Source: an uncultured Gammaproteobacteria bacterium
GTDB lineage: Bacteria > Patescibacteriota > Patescibacteriia > Buchananbacterales > UBA6539
Direction: 5' to 3'
Length of the DNA: 64,000 nt
Assembly (NCBI GenBank): GCA_964535715.1
Contig: CAZHUO010000002.1
Span: 16,916-80,915 of the forward strand
A model generated the notes under the pieces. It searched no databases, was not told the DNA's origin, and saw nothing but the letters and a program-made list of their open reading frames with translations. The first letter of the stretch is position 1. The number at the start of each line of letters is the position of its first letter. This document shows positions 4,387 through 31,521 of this stretch, piece after piece. Position numbers and translations under genes: made by a program.

Positions 4387-4419
4387 TTTGCGGTACAAGT
4401 AGCCTACTTTCAGTATCAG

Positions 4420-4738
4420 AATAATGGAATTGGATCAAATACTAATTACTCAGACTTAAAAACAGGACACACCAGTGTCCGATTTTTGGGACAGCACAAT
4501 ATCCCTGTCCCGTGTCCGATTTGTCCAATTTTGTAGAATTAGGCCTGACCGAGATGCCTCAAACTCGCCTCTAGTAAATACTCTAAATAACCCTTATAAT
4601 GCTTGTAAAGTTTCGGTTCTAGACCGAGGTACACTGCCAGAAAATCGCCGAAGAGGCGTTTTTTTGCCTGTCCGCCTCTCTGGCTCGCCATTCGGTGGCT
4701 TGCGGGGTATAATGTAACTAATAATTAATTCCATTATT
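4420..4738. repeat. IR-bounded GC-rich non-coding island (candidate ncRNA, regulatory array or MITE-like insert)
   Basis: A perfect 12-bp inverted repeat, AATAATGGAATT (4420-4431) / AATTCCATTATT (4727-4738), encloses palindromes GGACAC-acca-GTGTCC (4465-4480) and GGGACAG-N10-CTGTCCC (4488-4511), direct repeats GTGTCCGATTT (4475-4485, 4512-4522) and a terminator. Confidence 0.45.
4641..4665 (+). terminator. Intrinsic terminator inside the non-coding island
   Basis: aaaatCGCC-gaaga-GGCG followed by seven T (4659-4665). The stem is short (4 GC pairs). Confidence 0.45.
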
Positions 4739-4754
4739 TTTAACCAATATCATT

Positions 4755-5267: not shown

Positions 5268-5366
5268 ACCCCGCACTAATTTTATAATCAATTTTATAAA
5301 TATATCTTTTAATTATAATTATTTAATAATAAATGTATGACTCAAAACACTAAATTAGTGCGGGGT
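5268..5366. repeat. 15-bp perfect GC-rich inverted repeat bracketing the start codon of ORF 5337
   Basis: ACCCCGCACTAATTT (5268-5282) / AAATTAGTGCGGGGT (5352-5366), 69-nt AT-rich spacer. It shares the 12-mer CCCCGCACTAAT with 15634-15645. Confidence 0.8.
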
Positions 5367-5663
5367 CAACATAGCGCAACAATTGATGACGTTTTAGAGG
5401 CAGTCAATATTTTTGCCGACGAAACTCATCAGGAGTTTAGTCATGTCAAAGGCGAGATATCGGAGATTAATAGTAACATAACAAGAATGGTTACCAAAGA
5501 TTACCTGGATGACAAGATGTCGGATTTAAGAGGCGATTTAGTAGTGATGATGAGAAAAGAAGATAATAAGCTAAAAACTCTGGTCGGTGTATTAAAAGAA
5601 AAGTCAGTTTTAGATAGCAGTGATGTCAGCCGGATATATTCAATGGAGCCTTTTGCTCAATAA
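5337..5663 (+). CDS. Hypothetical protein (coiled-coil-like)
   Basis: 108-aa ORF with a promoter upstream and a terminator downstream. No family recognised. Confidence 0.55.
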   Translation: MTQNTKLVRGQHSATIDDVLEAVNIFADETHQEFSHVKGEISEINSNITRMVTKDYLDDKMSDLRGDLVVMMRKEDNKLKTLVGVLKEKSVLDSSDVSRIYSMEPFAQ

Positions 5664-7832: not shown

Positions 7833-8114
7833 ATGGCTAAAATGACCAAATCTCAAACGCTTGCAGCATTGTCTGAAAGCACTGAGTTAAGCAAAAAAGA
7901 CGTAGCTAATCTACTTGATAAGCTAGTCGAGTTAGCTTATTCAGAAGTCAAGAAAAGCGGCGAATTTGCCATCCCTGGTGTTGGTAAATTAGTAAAAATG
8001 AACAGAAAAGCCAGAATGGGAAGAAATCCTGCCACCGGCGAAGAAATCAAAATCCCGGCAAAAACTGTTGTTAAATTCAGAGTTGCCAAAGCCGCAAAAG
8101 AAGCTGTTTTATAA
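7833..8114 (+). CDS. hup: HU family DNA-binding protein
   Basis: 93 aa, GEFAIPGVGKLVKMNRKARMGRNPATGEEIKIPAKTVVKFR. Confidence 0.9.
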   Translation: MAKMTKSQTLAALSESTELSKKDVANLLDKLVELAYSEVKKSGEFAIPGVGKLVKMNRKARMGRNPATGEEIKIPAKTVVKFRVAKAAKEAVL

Positions 8115-8133
8115 AAGCTTTATAAAAATAAAG

Positions 8134-8158
8134 GAGCCTGAAATTTTAGGCTCTTTTA
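8134..8158 (+). terminator. Intrinsic terminator after the HU gene
   Basis: GAGCCT (8134-8139) / AGGCTC (8148-8153) followed by TTTT. Confidence 0.7.
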
Positions 8159-8230
8159 TTATTCTAAGCAAGTTAGCATTTTTTCATTAACCTTTTTTCA
8201 AAAATAATGTATAATTAAAATAATGATTTT

Positions 8231-9583
8231 ATGACAAAAAAATGCGATAAAAAAACAAAAGCCTGGATAGTTTCTGTTGATATGGGTTATGGCCATCAGC
8301 GGCCCGCTCATGCTTTAAGGCACTTGGCAAATAAAGGCAGAGTCATCACCGCAAATAATTATCCCGGCATTCCTTCTTTTGATCGAAAAATTTGGTATGA
8401 AAGCCGGAGATTTTATGAATTTATGTCGCGTTTTAAGAATGTGCCTATTATCGGGGATAAGGCTTGGAAGATATATGATAACATGCAGGAAATTCCGGAA
8501 TTTTATCCAAAACGCGATTTGTCGAAGCTTAGCCTTCAGATCAGGCAGATTTATTCAATTATTGAGTCTAAAAAATGGGGCAGCCATTTAATAAATAAAT
8601 TGTCAAAAAATCCTTTGCCTTTAGTCTCAACTTTTTTTATCTCGGCATTTATGGCCGAAACTTTTAAATATCCGGGAGAAATATATTGTTTGGCTACCGA
8701 TACCGATATTAATCGGGCCTGGGCGCCAAAACAGCCGGCTTCTTCCAAGATAAAATATTTTGCTCCAAGTTATCGAGTGGTGGAAAGGCTTAAGCTATAC
8801 GGCGTTCCGGCCGAAAAGATTTTTTTAACCGGTTTTCCTTTGCCTTTGGAAAACACCGGCAACCTGAATCTTAATATTTTAAAAAAAGATTTAAAAAACA
8901 GGTTGGCTAATTTGGATCCAAATGGCAATTATTGGAAAACGTACCATGATGTTGCCGAAAAACATGCAGGTATTAAAAAATTGCCGGCTAAATCTGATCA
9001 TATACTGACCTTAATGTTTGCCGTCGGCGGCGCCGGTGCTCAAAGAGAAATCGGAGTGCAAATAATTAAAAGTTTGAAAAATAAGATTATTAAAAAGAAA
9101 ATAAGGGTAATTCTGGTGGCTGGAATTCATAATAGCCTAAATCAATTTTTCCGCAAATCAGTTGTGGATAACGGCTTGAAAAAGGAATTGGAAAATGGAG
9201 TAAAGATTATTTTTTCTGCCGGAAAATATGATTATTTTAAAAAATTTAATAAAGCATTGCGTACAACTGATGTTTTATGGACTAAGCCGTCCGAGCTGAG
9301 TTTTTATTGCGCTTTGGGAATACCGATTATTATTGCACCGCCAATAGGTTCTCAGGAAGAATTCAACCGGCGCTGGCTTAGGACTATTGGATCAGCTTCA
9401 AGTCAATTTGATCCAAAATATTGTAACGAATGGTTTTTTGATTGGGTTAATTCCGGCTGGCTGGCTGAAGCGGCAATGCAGGGTTTTGTTGAAGCGCCGA
9501 AATTCGGGACTTATAATATTGAAAAGATAATTTGCCATGAGTTTGAAAAGGCTAAAAAGCCCAAGATGGTTTTGCAGTATTAA
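8231..9583 (+). CDS. GT-B glycosyltransferase-like protein (MGDG synthase / GT28-like)
   Basis: N-terminal MGYGHQRPAHAL and C-terminal TKPSELSFYCALGIPIIIAPPIGSQEEFN resemble the UgtP/MurG-type donor-binding region. Motif-level call only. Confidence 0.5.
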   Translation: MTKKCDKKTKAWIVSVDMGYGHQRPAHALRHLANKGRVITANNYPGIPSFDRKIWYESRRFYEFMSRFKNVPIIGDKAWKIYDNMQEIPEFYPKRDLSKLSLQIRQIYSIIESKKWGSHLINKLSKNPLPLVSTFFISAFMAETFKYPGEIYCLATDTDINRAWAPKQPASSKIKYFAPSYRVVERLKLYGVPAEKIFLTGFPLPLENTGNLNLNILKKDLKNRLANLDPNGNYWKTYHDVAEKHAGIKKLPAKSDHILTLMFAVGGAGAQREIGVQIIKSLKNKIIKKKIRVILVAGIHNSLNQFFRKSVVDNGLKKELENGVKIIFSAGKYDYFKKFNKALRTTDVLWTKPSELSFYCALGIPIIIAPPIGSQEEFNRRWLRTIGSASSQFDPKYCNEWFFDWVNSGWLAEAAMQGFVEAPKFGTYNIEKIICHEFEKAKKPKMVLQY

Positions 9584-14484: not shown

Positions 14485-15216
14485 TTATCGGCCTTCTTTT
14501 TTATCAAACTCTTTATTTTGGATTTCAACCAGTGTCGCTTTCGGCACAGTATCAAATAATTCAATGACGTCTTTATTTATCATCCGAATACAGCCATGGG
14601 AAGCCGGCTCGCCGATAAGGCCTTCCTCGTTAGTTCCATGAATAAATATGCCCCTTTGAGCGGAATTATCATTTATTCCTTTTTCCAAACCCTCAAGCGC
14701 TAAAAGCCTGGTAGTCATTAAATCACTAGGTGCTTGGACGTGCTCGGTATATATTGTAGTTTTGCCTTTTTTGCTTTGTTTTTCAAAAACAGTCCCTAAC
14801 TCTGCATTGTCGCCGATTTTAGCAGATATGCGGTGAGTTCCAAAAGGCGTTTTATTGCTATTATTTTTATTGCTAATACCTTTGGCAGCGGTTGAAATAT
14901 TATATGATTTGACAATTTGGTTATCTTTTACAAGAAGCATTTCCTGACGTTCAGGGTTAATGACTATGGCGAATTCTTCGGGTTTTAAATTGAAGTTGCT
15001 GGTTAATTTTTCTACGCTTTCCTTGATTTCTTCCCAGATTTGCTCCGGCGTTCTTTCTTGCTCTTTTTGTTCTGCGTCAGCTGATTTTAAAGAAAGCAGT
15101 TCTTTGGCAGCTAAAGCGCCAAAAAAGGCCTGTTTTAAAAATTCACGACGAGTTGGCTTGTTATTTTTTTCAGTTTTAGATTCTTCCGTTTCCGGATTAA
15201 ATGTTTCTTTTTCCAT
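14485..15216 (-). CDS. L,D-transpeptidase (YkuD family) with a Tat-like signal
   Basis: [15 protein letters not shown]. Catalytic [23 protein letters not shown]. Confidence 0.85.
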
Positions 15217-15236
15217 AAGAAATAATGTAATTTATT

Positions 15237-15585
15237 GGCGACGTAGGGCGAGAGTCCCGCACCTATTTTACTCATCAATCATTTTCAAGATTAATTTTTT
15301 CTACAGTATAAAATAAATTATTTAACCTAAACAGTGATCAGTAAAATAGGTGCGGGATCTAGTTAAGCCGCTACGACGCAGGTTTAATTAATGAATCTTA
15401 TCGTGAAAAGGGAGCCATCAAAGGGTGAAATACCCGAAAGCGCTCCGTCGCCAAAGCGGTACTTATCCAGTTTTGACGCGTCAACGACTTGTCCCGATTA
15501 ATCCTTCGCCTTTGGCGGAGTGAAAAATCTTAGATCCCGTCTTATTCATATCTAATTATAAAGCGGGACTCCGTGGTTAATACCC
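15237..15585. mobile_element. 349-bp GC-rich structured non-coding insertion with a 6-bp TTTATT target duplication (MITE-like / mobile ncRNA candidate)
   Basis: The string ATAATGTAATTTATTAAATATATT-TGG is contiguous at 16122-16148. Here it is split after TTTATT (15231-15236) and resumes with TTTATT (15586-15591). Subterminal IR GAGTCCCGC / GCGGGACTC. An 18-bp stem at 15255-15272 / 15340-15357. Confidence 0.5.
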
Positions 15586-15600
15586 TTTATTAAATATATT

Positions 15601-15765
15601 TGGTCGGGCTGGGGAGATTCGAACTCCCGACCTCCCCGCACTAATGTCCGCGAATTGGCATTTTTGAAATTTAAAGTTAGATTAGCGCGAACACCGCCTG
15701 CGGCTGGTATTTCAAGAGATGAGACAAGATAATAGACATGGTGCGGGGCAGGCATCATCCCGAAC
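15601..15765 (-). pseudogene. Disrupted tRNA-Pro remnant (3' part only, interrupted by a 119-bp insert)
   Basis: 15601-15633 is identical to the CCA, acceptor, T arm and variable loop of the intact tRNA. 15753-15765 (catcatcccgaac) is a mutated anticodon stem/loop. No 5' half is present. Confidence 0.7.
15634..15752. repeat. 119-bp IR-flanked insert at the variable-loop/anticodon-stem junction of the tRNA remnant
   Basis: CCCCGCAC (15634-15641) and GTGCGGGG (15741-15748). The same CCCCGCACTAAT word occurs at 5270-5281. Confidence 0.55.
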
Positions 15766-15790
15766 TTAAGTAAAGCAATTTTTAATTCTC

Positions 15791-15847
15791 TCGGGCTGGG
15801 GAGATTCGAACTCCCGACCTCATCGTCCCGAACGATGCGCGCTAGCC
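15791..15847 (-). pseudogene. tRNA-Pro 3' fragment (D-loop to acceptor, no CCA)
   Basis: 57 of 57 identical to 16149-16205 of the intact tRNA. It diverges on both sides. Confidence 0.8.
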
Positions 15848-16123
15848 CCCGCCAGAGGCGGGTCGGCCTTTGGCGGAAGCTGCTCTAATAATTATATTAC
15901 GAACTTGTCTTCCAAATCCACTTTTGTAAAATTTTTCTCTCATAATAGCATCCTGTTCGCATAAGTATTTTTCAAAATATAATAATATTAGATGACCATT
16001 CTCACGTGTCCATTTGTTCGATTTCTGATTATGTTGTTTTAATCTGTCTTCTGGATTAATTTTTGAGTAACCGACGTATATCTTTCCATTTTTTATACTT
16101 TTTAAAAAATATACATAAAACAT
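15842..16123 (-). CDS. GIY-YIG nuclease family protein
   Basis: MFYVYFLKSIKNGKIYVGYS...RLKQHN...REKFYKS. The stop TAG (15842-15844) lies inside the tRNA fragment. The GC-hairpin-encoded tail is AASAKGRPASGGG. Confidence 0.75.
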   Translation of the reverse strand: MFYVYFLKSIKNGKIYVGYSKINPEDRLKQHNQKSNKWTRENGHLILLYFEKYLCEQDAIMREKFYKSGFGRQVRNIIIRAASAKGRPASGGG

Positions 16124-16145
16124 AATGTAATTTATTAAATATATT

Positions 16146-16222
16146 TGGTCGGGCTGGGGAGATTCGAACTCCCGACCTCATCGTCCCGAACGATGCGCGC
16201 TAGCCAGCTGCGCTACAGCCCG
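16146..16222 (-). tRNA. tRNA-Pro (anticodon CGG), CCA encoded
   Basis: CGGGCTG-TA-GCGC-AGCTGGCTA-GCGC-G-CATCG-TTCGGGA-CGATG-AGGTC-GGGAG-TTCGAAT-CTCCC-CAGCCCG-A-CCA folds as a canonical 77-nt cloverleaf. Confidence 0.9.
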
Positions 16223-16311
16223 ATAAATAGCGATTAACCAATAACGGTTAACAGTCAATTATTATAGTTTATATTCTTTTTAGTATAAAATCAAGTTTAA
16301 GCCAAAAAGAT

Positions 16312-16347
16312 AAGGCCGCGTCATTTTGCAATAACGCGGCCTTTTTT
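16312..16347. terminator. Bidirectional hairpin terminator
   Basis: AAGGCCGCG (16312-16320) / CGCGGCCTT (16335-16343), T-run on plus, ATCTTTTT on minus. It lies downstream of the minus-strand gene at 16364. Confidence 0.6.
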
Positions 16348-16363
16348 GCGGGTTTTGGGGGAA

Positions 16364-16786
16364 TTATTTTTTCATAGAATCCCTTACTCTTTTTCTAGCC
16401 ATTACAAGCCAGAACATCTCGCAGGCGCTTATGTTAAGCGCAATGCCGAGAATCATGAGTAATAATCCAAATATTCCCTTTTGGGATGTCAGTAATGGAA
16501 TCGCAACAAGTGCAATTCCTAAACTTATCTGACATGCCCACCAGTACGGGTATTTGCGTGCGATTCTGCGGTGCGTCTTATTGGTAGCATCGCAAAAAAC
16601 CAAGCTTGCATAGGATATGAAGACGCCTAACCAAATGATTAACGTCCATATCATGCAAAGCATAGCCATCTCGGAAATTTTGCTGTAACGATCCGGATAA
16701 AACCTGTAGACCCAGCCAAACAGCACCATTATGCCGAGCAGCGCACAACACAGCTTTCCCATTCCATTCTTGTAATACCTGGTCAC
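16364..16786 (-). CDS. Hypothetical four-TM membrane protein, compositionally atypical
   Basis: 140 aa. GTG start with AGGAG 7 nt upstream. Sampled 60-nt lines give 22-30 G+C per 60, against about 17-20 per 60 in neighbouring genes. Confidence 0.6.
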   Translation of the reverse strand: MTRYYKNGMGKLCCALLGIMVLFGWVYRFYPDRYSKISEMAMLCMIWTLIIWLGVFISYASLVFCDATNKTHRRIARKYPYWWACQISLGIALVAIPLLTSQKGIFGLLLMILGIALNISACEMFWLVMARKRVRDSMKK

Positions 16787-16973: not shown

Positions 16974-17666
16974 ATGACCAAAAAACACAATTTAAGCCAT
17001 ATTGGTATTATTATGGACGGCAACAGGCGCTGGGCCAAAAATAAGGGCTTACCGACTTTGGAAGGCCACCAAAAAGGCTACCAAAAGATGAAAAAAGTCG
17101 CCAAATGGTGTATTGACCGAGGCGTTAAGATATTAACAGTTTATGCTTTTTCAACGGAAAACTGGCATCGCCAAAAAAACGAAGTTAATTATCTAATGAA
17201 TCTGTTACGTGATGTTTTTAAAAAAGATTTTGACGAGCTTTCCAAACAAGGAATTAAAATCAAAGTCATTGGCCAAAAAGAGCGCCTGGCTTCTGATATT
17301 CAGCAAATAGTTGAAGAAGTTGAATTGAAAACTAAAAATAATAAAAAATTGCTGTTTCAAATCGCTATTTCTTATGGCGGCAGACCCGATATTGTCCAGT
17401 CGGTTAAAAAAATTGTTTCTCAAAATATCCCCGTTGAAAGAATTACCGAAGATCTGATTTCCAAAAACCTTTGGACTGCGGGAGTTTATGATCCCGATTT
17501 GATTGTTCGGACTTCCGGCGAACATCGTCTGTCTAATTTTTTAACTTGGCAGTCTGCCTATTCGGAGCTGATTTTTATTAAAAAACACTGGCCGGAGTTT
17601 TCTGAAAAAGATTTAGACAAGATTATCGCAGAATATAACAAAAGAAGTCGAAGATTCGGCAAATAA
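16974..17666 (+). CDS. uppS: Undecaprenyl-diphosphate synthase (isoprenyl transferase)
   Basis: HIGIIMDGNRRWAK, YAFSTENWHR, IRTSGEHRLSNFLTWQSAYSEL. Confidence 0.9.
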   Translation: MTKKHNLSHIGIIMDGNRRWAKNKGLPTLEGHQKGYQKMKKVAKWCIDRGVKILTVYAFSTENWHRQKNEVNYLMNLLRDVFKKDFDELSKQGIKIKVIGQKERLASDIQQIVEEVELKTKNNKKLLFQIAISYGGRPDIVQSVKKIVSQNIPVERITEDLISKNLWTAGVYDPDLIVRTSGEHRLSNFLTWQSAYSELIFIKKHWPEFSEKDLDKIIAEYNKRSRRFGK

Positions 17667-31007: not shown

Positions 31008-31210
31008 TTGTCATTCTGAATTTATTACTGCTTTGTCATCCTGAATTCATTTCAGGATCCAGTAAAGCCTAGAGTGACAAGTCTAGAAAAAAAGCACCCC
31101 CTTTGTCATCCTGAAATTGGTTCAGGATCTGGAAAAGTCTAGAAAGCACCTCCTTGTCATTTCGAGCGACTCACCGAAGCCTAAAAGGCGGAGGTGAGGA
31201 GTCGAGAAAT
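31008..31210 (+). repeat. Array of four TTGTCAT(C/T)(C/T)(C/T)GA(A/G) hairpin repeats upstream of the GIY-YIG gene
   Basis: Copies at 31008, 31033, 31103 and 31154. Hairpins ATCCTGAA-n5-TTCAGGAT occur twice. TTTCGAGCGACTCACC...GGTGAGGAGTCGAGAAA also forms a hairpin. Confidence 0.75.
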
Positions 31211-31224
31211 CCCACACGTAAATT

Positions 31225-31521
31225 ATGCAAGAAAAAGAATACTATACATATATCATGATGAACAGGTGGAACACGGTTTCTTATGTCGGAATAAGCGGCG
31301 ATCTTTCCTTTAGGGTTTGGCAGCACAAAGAAAAGGTAAATGAAGGTTTTACTAAAAAATACAACATCAATAAGTTAGTTTATTATGAAACCTATGATAA
31401 TCCCGATGACGCCATTGTCAGAGAAAAACAGTTGAAACGGTGGAACAGAAAGAAAAAGGTTGATTTAATAAAAAAAGAAAATCCTGAATTTAAGGACTTA
31501 TCGGATGGTTGGGAGGTGTGA
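31225..31521 (+). CDS. GIY-YIG nuclease family protein
   Basis: YYTYIMMNRWNTVSYVGISGDLSFRVWQHK...AIVREKQLKRWNRKKK. Confidence 0.8.
   Translation: MQEKEYYTYIMMNRWNTVSYVGISGDLSFRVWQHKEKVNEGFTKKYNINKLVYYETYDNPDDAIVREKQLKRWNRKKKVDLIKKENPEFKDLSDGWEV

Follow-up and report, generated by a model that had tools for sequence, protein, structure and literature searches.

The window, by which we mean the whole 64,000-nucleotide stretch of contig CAZHUO010000002.1 (assembly GCA_964535715.1) that was analysed, carries a broken copy of a tRNA-Pro(CGG) gene that is interrupted by a 119-bp unit, here called W3, between position 43 (the end of the anticodon stem) and position 44 (the start of the variable loop). 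The reading we lean towards, with slightly more confidence than doubt, is that W3 is a non-autonomous insertion element of Buchananbacteria, bounded by a palindrome, mobilised in trans and preferring the loops of tRNA-Pro genes, and that it now resides without cargo in a dead gene fragment. The element family is specific to Candidatus Buchananbacteria (Patescibacteria). The unit of the W3 subfamily is CCCCGCAC...GTGCGGGG followed by CAGG, and it sits at 43|44 without target duplication; this placement is found in two genomes and in two tRNA-Pro sequence types. W3 is a real conserved entity in the extent in which it was first delimited, the cagg included, because two loci from related genomes, L029 and L019, share the cagg and the junctions.

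The W3 unit and its host gene fragment

W3 begins with CCCCGCACTAAT at 15634 and ends with GTGCGGGGcagg (15741-15752). Its left terminal repeat, CCCCGCAC(TA)ATGTC (15634-15648), is matched on the right by GACAT(G)GTGCGGGG (15735-15748), which is followed by CAGG as a 4-nt linker (15749-15752). The repeat is perfect over 8 bp and extends to 13/15 across a bulge of 1-2 nt, and sister copies have 11-18 bp of perfect repeat. The flanks of W3, acct and cagg, form no direct repeat, hence there is no target duplication, and the same holds for the homologous unit in L029 (E29) and for the insert in L019. Within the window, CCCCGCAC occurs 4 times as compared to 0.55 expected, a count that 0/100 shuffles reach, and all four occurrences form two inverted pairs. 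W3 folds with CCCCGCAC/GTGCGGGG as its closing stem (z=-2.6 on the minus strand and z=-3.8 on the plus strand). Promoter-like hexamers are present within it, and the only open reading frame (ORF) that overlaps it, of 68 aa, has no Pfam match.

The sole intact tRNA that ARAGORN and Rfam find in the window is the tRNA-Pro(CGG) at 16146-16222, where the site of W3 is empty in a paralogous copy. Two partial tRNA-Pro copies, A and B, follow it in the direction of the tRNA, and the insertion of W3 next to fragment A is precise when set against both the intact gene and fragment B. On the left side of W3, 15586-15634 is identical to 16131-16179 in 49/49 positions, which covers tRNA positions 44-77 and 15 nt of downstream flank. 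On the right side, 15753-15765, reading catcatcccgaac, matches tRNA positions 31-43 in 12/13. A once-contiguous 3′ part of tRNA-Pro (positions 31-77) is thus split by W3 at 43|44, with a 1-nt ambiguity in the break (15634 and 15753 are both c); positions 1-30 are absent from this fragment. Another insert, E1 in L029, has the right end GTGCGGGATGAAG, with which the piece at 15753-15765 agrees in 11/13 positions as well, and the piece may therefore represent an element end instead of tRNA, the two sequences being nearly alike.

The sequence-only reading that preceded this analysis had described a break of the tRNA at CGATG|AGGTC by 119 bp, closed by an inverted repeat. The insert, its junction and its ends stand. 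A match that had been proposed between the core of W3 and 5268-5366, the site of a sister module (W1, see below), did not hold up: only the terminal 12-14 nt are common, and the interiors do not align (permutation test, z=0.2; 138/300 shuffles score as well). The interior does not represent a decayed tRNA either, since it has no match to the tRNA model on either strand.

The tRNA-Pro locus in related genomes

The tRNA-Pro regions of relatives were recovered by synteny (POR alpha/beta, variable region, uppS, mgsA, NUDIX), the relatives compared showing 67-76% UppS identity. The closest named homologs of the UppS encoded at 16974-17666 are in Buchananbacteria metagenome-assembled genomes (MAGs). 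A scan of metagenome contigs with UppS gave 6 loci, of which L012 alone was useful, and a scan of genome contigs with the YkuD protein gave one distant locus at 49% identity, L003. This locus (JAQVBK010000091.1, labelled Cloacimonadota) encodes homologs of two window proteins, YkuD (49%) and GIY-YIG (40%), at 2373-2585 and 8050-8565. The loci L011, L012, L018, L021/22 and L032 show tRNA-Pro in its plain form, with no fragments, and represent empty states, and L008, L019 and L029 are complex tRNA-Pro loci. In L005 (8782-10000), the synteny from POR-beta to uppS is kept, and there is no tRNA-Pro or fragment at the locus.

In L029, the 117-nt unit E29 sits at 43|44 of a tRNA-Pro remnant whose sequence type is different from that of the window. 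Its junctions in tRNA sense read ...GGTGCGTG|CCTG-CCCCGCACTAAG...CTTTAGTGCGGGG|AGATTCCGGG...ACCA (GCGTG|...|AGATT), and the CCTG linker, both ends and the interior are common to E29 and W3. The alignment of the two interiors scores 56-57, as compared to 25.5+-6.7 for shuffles (z=4.7; 0 of 300-500 shuffles reach it), and the size, the closing stem (with 2 compensatory pairs) and a central GCC-N3-GGC hairpin are kept. In L019, the junctions on the plus strand, gacct|CCCCGC ... GCGGG|cagg|c, are the same as in W3. Here, the insert at 43|44 is ~170 nt long, lies in a tRNA-Pro of the window type and holds an intact tRNA-Pro that does not encode CCA. The limit of W3 at 119 bp is backed independently by the same cagg in the L029 homolog and in the L019 insert.

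The initial reading had suggested a search for copies elsewhere, a test of the fold for covariation and a look at related genomes for uninterrupted tRNA-Pro copies. The covariation is limited to 2 compensatory pairs between two sequences only. It had also named the case that would speak against it, namely that no other copies exist and that random decay of a duplicated tRNA flank explains the sequence. This case does not hold. That the perfect repeat measures only 8 bp and that the locus is visibly rearranged would fit an inverted repeat that arose by chance in such decay, but we find this scarcely credible: CCCCGCAC is over-represented and always paired, E29 is a homolog at the same position, L019 has the same junctions, and fragment A, with its 100% match to the intact gene, is not old decayed DNA.

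Intact tRNA-Pro genes without encoded CCA lie in inserts at L019 8439-8541, L008 8943-9060 and L029 5120-5240. In the L019 insert, a perfect 15-bp inverted repeat extends the acceptor stem of this gene. Repeats that extend the acceptor stem measure 6 plus 11 bp in L008 and ~14 bp in L029, and their sequence is different in each genome, with the complementarity kept. The CCA-encoding tRNA-Pro of simple loci, as read in the window and in L018, has no such repeats.

The window itself has a 49-bp direct repeat, formed by fragment A and the intact gene, which brackets ~500 bp containing a GIY-YIG nuclease gene, fragment B and W3 (Table 1). In fragment B, 15791-15847 corresponds to tRNA-Pro positions 18-74 (57/57 identical to 16149-16205), without CCA. 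Its D-loop has a 30-nt hairpin insertion (15848-15877), beyond which TAGAGCAGCT (15878-15887) matches tRNA positions 8-17 in 9/10. The GIY-YIG ORF is probably co-transcribed with the intact tRNA-Pro, because it begins 22 nt past it. Fragment B and the D-loop hairpin supply its final 21 codons, and a TAG within the tRNA D-loop sequence GGCTAGCGC serves as its stop codon. This 93-aa ORF is the only one in the DNA between the 49-bp repeats, and there is no integrase or recombinase in it. Near the tRNA-Pro locus of L008, L019 and L029, there is no GIY-YIG gene.

With this arrangement in mind, W3 could be no independent element but the conserved end-structure, or recombination site, of something larger. 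A cassette would then integrate into the resident tRNA-Pro and supply a substitute tRNA-Pro gene, either alone or together with GIY-YIG, and the tRNA fragment and W3 would be the junction left by its integration. The 49-bp direct repeat and the inserts with intact tRNA-Pro in L019, L008 and L029, all of them bounded by inverted repeats, argue for it. So does an order common to the window and L029: a CCA-less type-I 3′ end (...AGCCCGA), a spacer of 27-29 nt, G(T/G)(T/C)CGGGATGA(T/A)G, CCTG, the element and the variable loop. However, the bracketed DNA lacks an integrase, the complex loci of the relatives lack GIY-YIG, and the sister modules insert on their own at sites outside tRNA genes. The hosts of W3 and E29 also differ in tRNA type, which fits independent insertion better. 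We therefore regard a cassette end as an unlikely, though serious, alternative to an element that inserts by itself.

Another small GIY-YIG ORF, which shares 30% identity with the 93-aa one, lies at 31226-31521 on the plus strand. Three hairpin repeats (TTGTCATCCTGAA...TTCAGGAT / TTGTCATTTCGAGCGA...TCGAGAAATCCC) precede it at 31030-31215, which suggests that such repeats accompany the GIY-YIG genes here when these move. No contig on record encodes the GIY-YIG protein or the ORF at 5337-5663. Elsewhere in the window, an intergenic stretch of ~370 bp (4387-4754) has a G+C content above its surroundings and short hairpins (GACAC...GTGTC, GGGACAG...CTGTCCC); it has no Rfam match at E<=1.

Table 1. 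Position and make-up of W3, the tRNA-Pro copies, the GIY-YIG gene and the sister modules (window positions unless a locus is named)
Feature	Position	Strand	Composition or evidence
W3, 119-bp unit	15634..15752	.	left repeat, interior, right repeat and linker
Intact tRNA-Pro(CGG), CCA encoded	16146..16222	-	ARAGORN, Rfam
Fragment A	15586..15633	-	tRNA-Pro 44/45-77 with encoded CCA (15601-15633) and downstream flank (15586-15600)
13-nt piece of anticodon loop and 3′ stem	15753..15765	-	GTTCGGGATGATG in tRNA sense
Fragment B	15791..15887	-	tRNA-Pro piece with D-loop hairpin insertion
GIY-YIG nuclease ORF, 93 aa	15842..16123	-	PF01541, E=4.8e-15, residues 1-72
W1, 97 bp	5269..5365	.	CCCCGCACTAATTT...AAATTAGTGCGGGG, TCAA/TCAA flanks
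W2, 103 bp	15255..15357	.	18-bp perfect terminal repeats TCCCGCACCTATTTTACT...AGTAAAATAGGTGCGGGA
Composite insertion, ~312 bp	15255..15566	.	W2, 173 bp and a 34-nt TCCCG...GCGGGA hairpin
uppS-start module, ~97 bp	L008 9903-9999; L029 5898-5997; L032 5755-5855		CCCCGTTAG...CTAACGGGG

Sister modules and the tRNA-Pro gene as a target

W3 belongs to a family of modules of 95-120 bp with an AT-rich interior and the termini (C/T)CCCG(C)...(G)CGGG(G/A). W1 is identical to W3 in its first 12 nt. Its right arm falls within codons 6-10 of a 108-aa ORF (5337-5663) that has no Pfam match; the ATG lies inside the module, and the true start of this gene is uncertain. The second module, W2, has homologs at different sites in L008 (9226-9333) and L029 (10076-10178), and the subfamily is conserved across the three genomes with z=5.4-6.3. 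The L008 homolog, L8b, lies within aaaatcaa|gtt upstream of the tRNA, where the 4 bp TCAA are duplicated; the window and L011 have this sequence without a break. A further module sits at the start of uppS (L8c in L008), where the duplication is TATG in L008 and, 2 nt away, TTTA in L029 and L032; the window, L005, L018 and L021 have no insertion at this site. Every insertion at the uppS start regenerates an ATG, and translation of uppS must therefore begin beyond a hairpin of 100 nt. In summary, 4-bp target duplications are seen for W1, L8b and L8c, and empty orthologous sites for L8b and L8c.

In the window, W2 is part of a composite insertion bounded by GAGTCCCGC/GCGGGACTC, which splits the leader AATAAAGGGTATTAACC.CGGAGTC ... 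GTCGCCAATAAATTA ... ATG; in L011, this leader is continuous (2040-2098). The promoter- or leader-like sequence GGGTATTAACC.CGGAGTC ... GTCGCCAATAAATTA ... ATG, which occupies 15214-15254 and 15567-15600 in the window and 2040-2098 in L011, precedes a YkuD L,D-transpeptidase gene in the former and a radical-SAM gene in the latter, and a piece of it adjoins the W2-type module at L029 10040-10075. Logan contigs (SRR11845634, SRR11845619) match the window at 100%. One of them, L004, stops 5-6 nt inside the W2 arm (at 15260), and another, L001, stops within the intact tRNA (at 16176), where a break is expected because of the repeats; the fragment and insert region is wholly missing from these short-read assemblies. 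An invertible promoter was considered here and rejected, as L004 ends inside the W2 arm and not at its inner edge, and no invertase is nearby.

Among the loci compared, modules of the CCCCG type were found only in the window, L008, L019 and L029, i.e., in genomes with a complex tRNA-Pro locus, and in L032, which has a simple tRNA-Pro yet carries the uppS-start module. None were found at the loci of L005, L011, L018 and L021. Searches of the window and the recovered loci with nhmmer profiles of three subfamilies gave no additional copies. Scans of viral contigs with CCCGCNCCTATTTTACT and with CCCCGCAC-N85-115-GTGCGGGGCAGG gave chance matches only, which either had no inverted partner or lay in DNA of 66-72% GC.

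Within tRNA-Pro, inserts recur at several loop positions. They are found in the D-loop at 17-19 in fragment B of the window, L019 and L008, at 43|44 in the window, L029 and L019, and in the T-loop in L019, L008 and (twice) L029. The anticodon loop or arm holds TCCCGCACC...GGTGCGGGA in L008, an insert that carries an intact tRNA-Pro. In L029, it holds the 315-bp E1 (CCCCGCACCAAATAT...ATATTTGGTGCGGGA+TGAA, at TTCG|GGT) and also the inner cassette. These L029 inserts are nested: the outer tRNA-Pro is broken by E1, which holds a second tRNA-Pro that is in turn broken by the cassette with the intact gene. Inserts are enriched in tRNA-Pro sequence, with ~13 inserts in ~600 bp of tRNA-derived sequence versus ~7 in ~100 kb of flanking sequence by a hand count (no computed statistic). 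Again and again, the locus has been broken and has gained fresh tRNA-Pro copies. One intact copy is always present and free of inserts, as would be expected if hits in the sole functional copy were lethal, and in three genomes this copy lies inside an insert.

How the elements would be moved can be proposed in outline. An enzyme encoded elsewhere would mobilise them at the DNA level. The element end GTGCGGGA and the anticodon-loop context GTTCGGGA of tRNA-Pro(CGG) differ by one base, and this similarity between target and element end suggests that it may attract the machinery; the draw to tRNA-Pro could lie in this likeness, in the single-stranded hairpin loops of the tRNA gene, or in both. 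Inserts would persist only in tRNA-Pro copies that are no longer needed, and W3, which has no cargo and lies in a dead 3′ fragment, would then be a resident copy that is probably inert.

Several points weigh against an element of this kind. There is no target-site duplication in W3, E29, W2 or the tRNA-bearing insert of L008; since W1, L8b and L8c have one, two mechanisms may be lumped together here. An inversion that swapped the flanks of W2 and W3 was considered as an explanation of the missing duplications and discarded, as the flanks do not fit. The terminal repeat of W3 is short (8 bp perfect, 13/15 with the bulge). Neither the window ORFs checked nor any of the recovered loci yielded a transposase or recombinase with matching ends, and the latter showed no long inverted-repeat pair around a transposase. 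Copies were counted within 64 kb, and the genome and metagenome scans gave few relatives. One ancestral event could also account for the junctions being identical in three genomes, and the apparent likeness of the element end to the anticodon loop extends over 8 nt.

Another view would make W3 a functional cis-acting hairpin, either as a structured RNA in the 3′ trailer of the tRNA-Pro/GIY-YIG transcript, with a role in processing or stability for example, or as a pair of DNA operators; its conservation would then stem from use and not from movement. The conservation of size, closing stem and GCC-N3-GGC hairpin between W3 and E29, with the 2 compensatory pairs, is in line with it, as are a fold more stable than that of shuffles, the location of W1, L8c and W2 in leaders or at start codons, and the promoter-like hexamers. 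However, the covariation is minimal and comes from two sequences only, the host tRNA fragment is dead, the simple-locus relatives L011, L012, L018 and L021 do without the element, and there is no Rfam match; promoter-like matches are expected by chance in an AT-rich interior. A cis-acting function is thus improbable to us. Rfam at permissive thresholds, applied to the window region and to L008, L019 and L029, returned only tRNA and a tmRNA below threshold. The tmRNA was rejected, because it scores 16.7 bits against a gathering threshold of 47, is not called by ARAGORN and is explained by the T-arm and acceptor.

A more far-reaching idea, which we hold only tentatively, would unite the full cassettes (L019, L008, L029) with the cargo-less W3 in one selfish gene-replacement system. 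It would home into tRNA-Pro(CGG) with ends that mimic the anticodon loop, the full forms would break the resident gene and deliver a CCA-less replacement tRNA-Pro in a long helix, and either the small GIY-YIG nucleases or an enzyme that acts on single-stranded DNA would drive it. If this were true, the replacement tRNA-Pro would mean that the cell cannot lose the invader, and the nested broken genes would be a record of successive take-overs.

Relation to known mobile elements and introns

MITE-like elements (miniature inverted-repeat transposable elements) and tRNA-targeted integration are both already known. In the literature searched, there was no description of duplication-free mini-elements found in different genomes at one and the same position within a tRNA, nor of nested cassettes, bounded by inverted repeats, that deliver a whole CCA-less tRNA-Pro into the resident gene in bacteria of the Candidate Phyla Radiation (CPR). 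The genomes of these bacteria are tiny and thought to be poor in mobile DNA, and here an essential single-copy tRNA locus is a hot spot. If the site preference is real, it would point to an undescribed way of targeting, be it anticodon-loop mimicry or recognition of tRNA-gene hairpins in single-stranded DNA, and to a route by which selfish DNA could become indispensable. On the practical side, nested fragments of this sort disrupt assembly and mislead the annotation of tRNA genes in MAGs of Patescibacteria.

The initial reading had likened W3 both to a small insertion element and to a degenerate intron-like sequence, and only the first likeness has survived: the same-site homolog in L029, the junctions in L019, the duplications of the sister modules and two of their empty sites all bear it out. 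An intron removed from the RNA, whether it be a bacterial equivalent of the non-canonical tRNA introns of archaea or a degenerate group I intron, deserves a hearing, given that tRNA group I introns are abundant in Patescibacteria (PMC13011429). In archaea, small tRNA introns occur at many non-canonical positions and spread between tRNAs (PMC4090602, PMC4033280), and the inserts described here likewise recur at loop positions. We nevertheless judge it very improbable. With 119 nt, W3 is below the size of a group I core, and 15300-16400 has no RF00028 match at E<=5. It sits at 43|44, whereas the group I introns of bacterial tRNA genes covered in PMC13011429, those of Patescibacteria included, all sit in the anticodon loop. 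In the minimum free energy fold, the helix runs on across the junction, interrupted only by one 1-nt bulge, and there is no bulge-helix-bulge. The exons in the window lack the 5′ half, so that splicing would yield no tRNA; excision of the 43|44 insert rebuilds neither an anticodon arm nor a tRNA in L019, and in L029 two more inserts would have to be removed.

[quoted passage not shown] W3 has the phylum and the insertion within the body of a tRNA gene in common with them, and is unlike them in its size, its position, its truncated tRNA-Pro host and the lack of a ribozyme match. With the bulge-helix-bulge introns of archaea, it shares small hairpin inserts at several loop positions of one tRNA and related inserts at one position in different tRNAs. 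It differs from them in the bacterial host, in the missing bulge-helix-bulge, in interrupted copies that cannot be spliced into a tRNA, and in the signatures of DNA-level insertion, i.e., the target duplications, of its sister elements.

The favoured reading, an insertion element mobilised in trans, is closest to the MITEs, of which Correia/NEMIS of Neisseria and the Rickettsia palindromic elements are bacterial examples. Like these, W3 is ~100 bp long and non-coding, with terminal inverted repeats and an AT-rich interior; there are several subfamilies with common termini, some copies lie in leaders or at gene starts, and among the sister copies there are target duplications of 4 bp as well as orthologous sites that are empty. 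Set against the usual definition, the 119 bp of non-coding W3 fall within 50-800 bp, and multiple copies with filled and empty sites are seen (W3 in L029, W2 in L008 and L029, the empty sites of L8b and L8c). A target duplication of 2-10 bp is seen in W1, L8b and L8c and not in W3, and terminal inverted repeats of about 10-15 bp or more are called for (PMC11602168), as compared to 8 perfect bp (13/15 across the bulge) in W3 and 11-18 perfect bp in sister copies. W3 and its homologs are unlike MITEs in that they lack the duplication and have an asymmetric 4-nt linker, CAGG. Furthermore, only 5-8 terminal bases are common across subfamilies, with inner arms that differ yet are complementary, one tRNA gene is strongly preferred, and no parent insertion sequence or transposase is known.

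Integrative elements that target tRNA genes, such as phages and islands, have their att sites in the anticodon loop or T-loop, according to the tyrosine-integrase model. The window resembles them in that a duplicated tRNA 3′ segment, the 49-bp repeat, brackets foreign DNA, that breaks occur at the anticodon loop and T-loop, and that the incoming DNA restores a functional tRNA. In contrast to them, the inserts are 0.1-0.3 kb long and without integrase, their boundary repeats are inverted and not direct, and those of the relatives deliver whole CCA-less tRNA genes instead of the 3′ part. The attC sites of integrons have the core sites RYYYAAC ... GTTRRRY, and such a site was rejected for W3, as its ends, CCCCGCAC ... 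GTGCGGGG, are unlike this consensus.

Finally, REP/REPIN elements and the palindromic elements derived from IS200/IS605 form hairpins, are non-coding and are inserted without target duplication. W3 and its kin differ from these in that their termini pair with each other, each end not being a palindrome of its own; no RAYT or TnpA gene was seen. On the other hand, W3, W2 and E1 are likewise hairpin-forming, non-coding and free of target duplications, and the link with hairpin loops is compatible with an action on single-stranded DNA.

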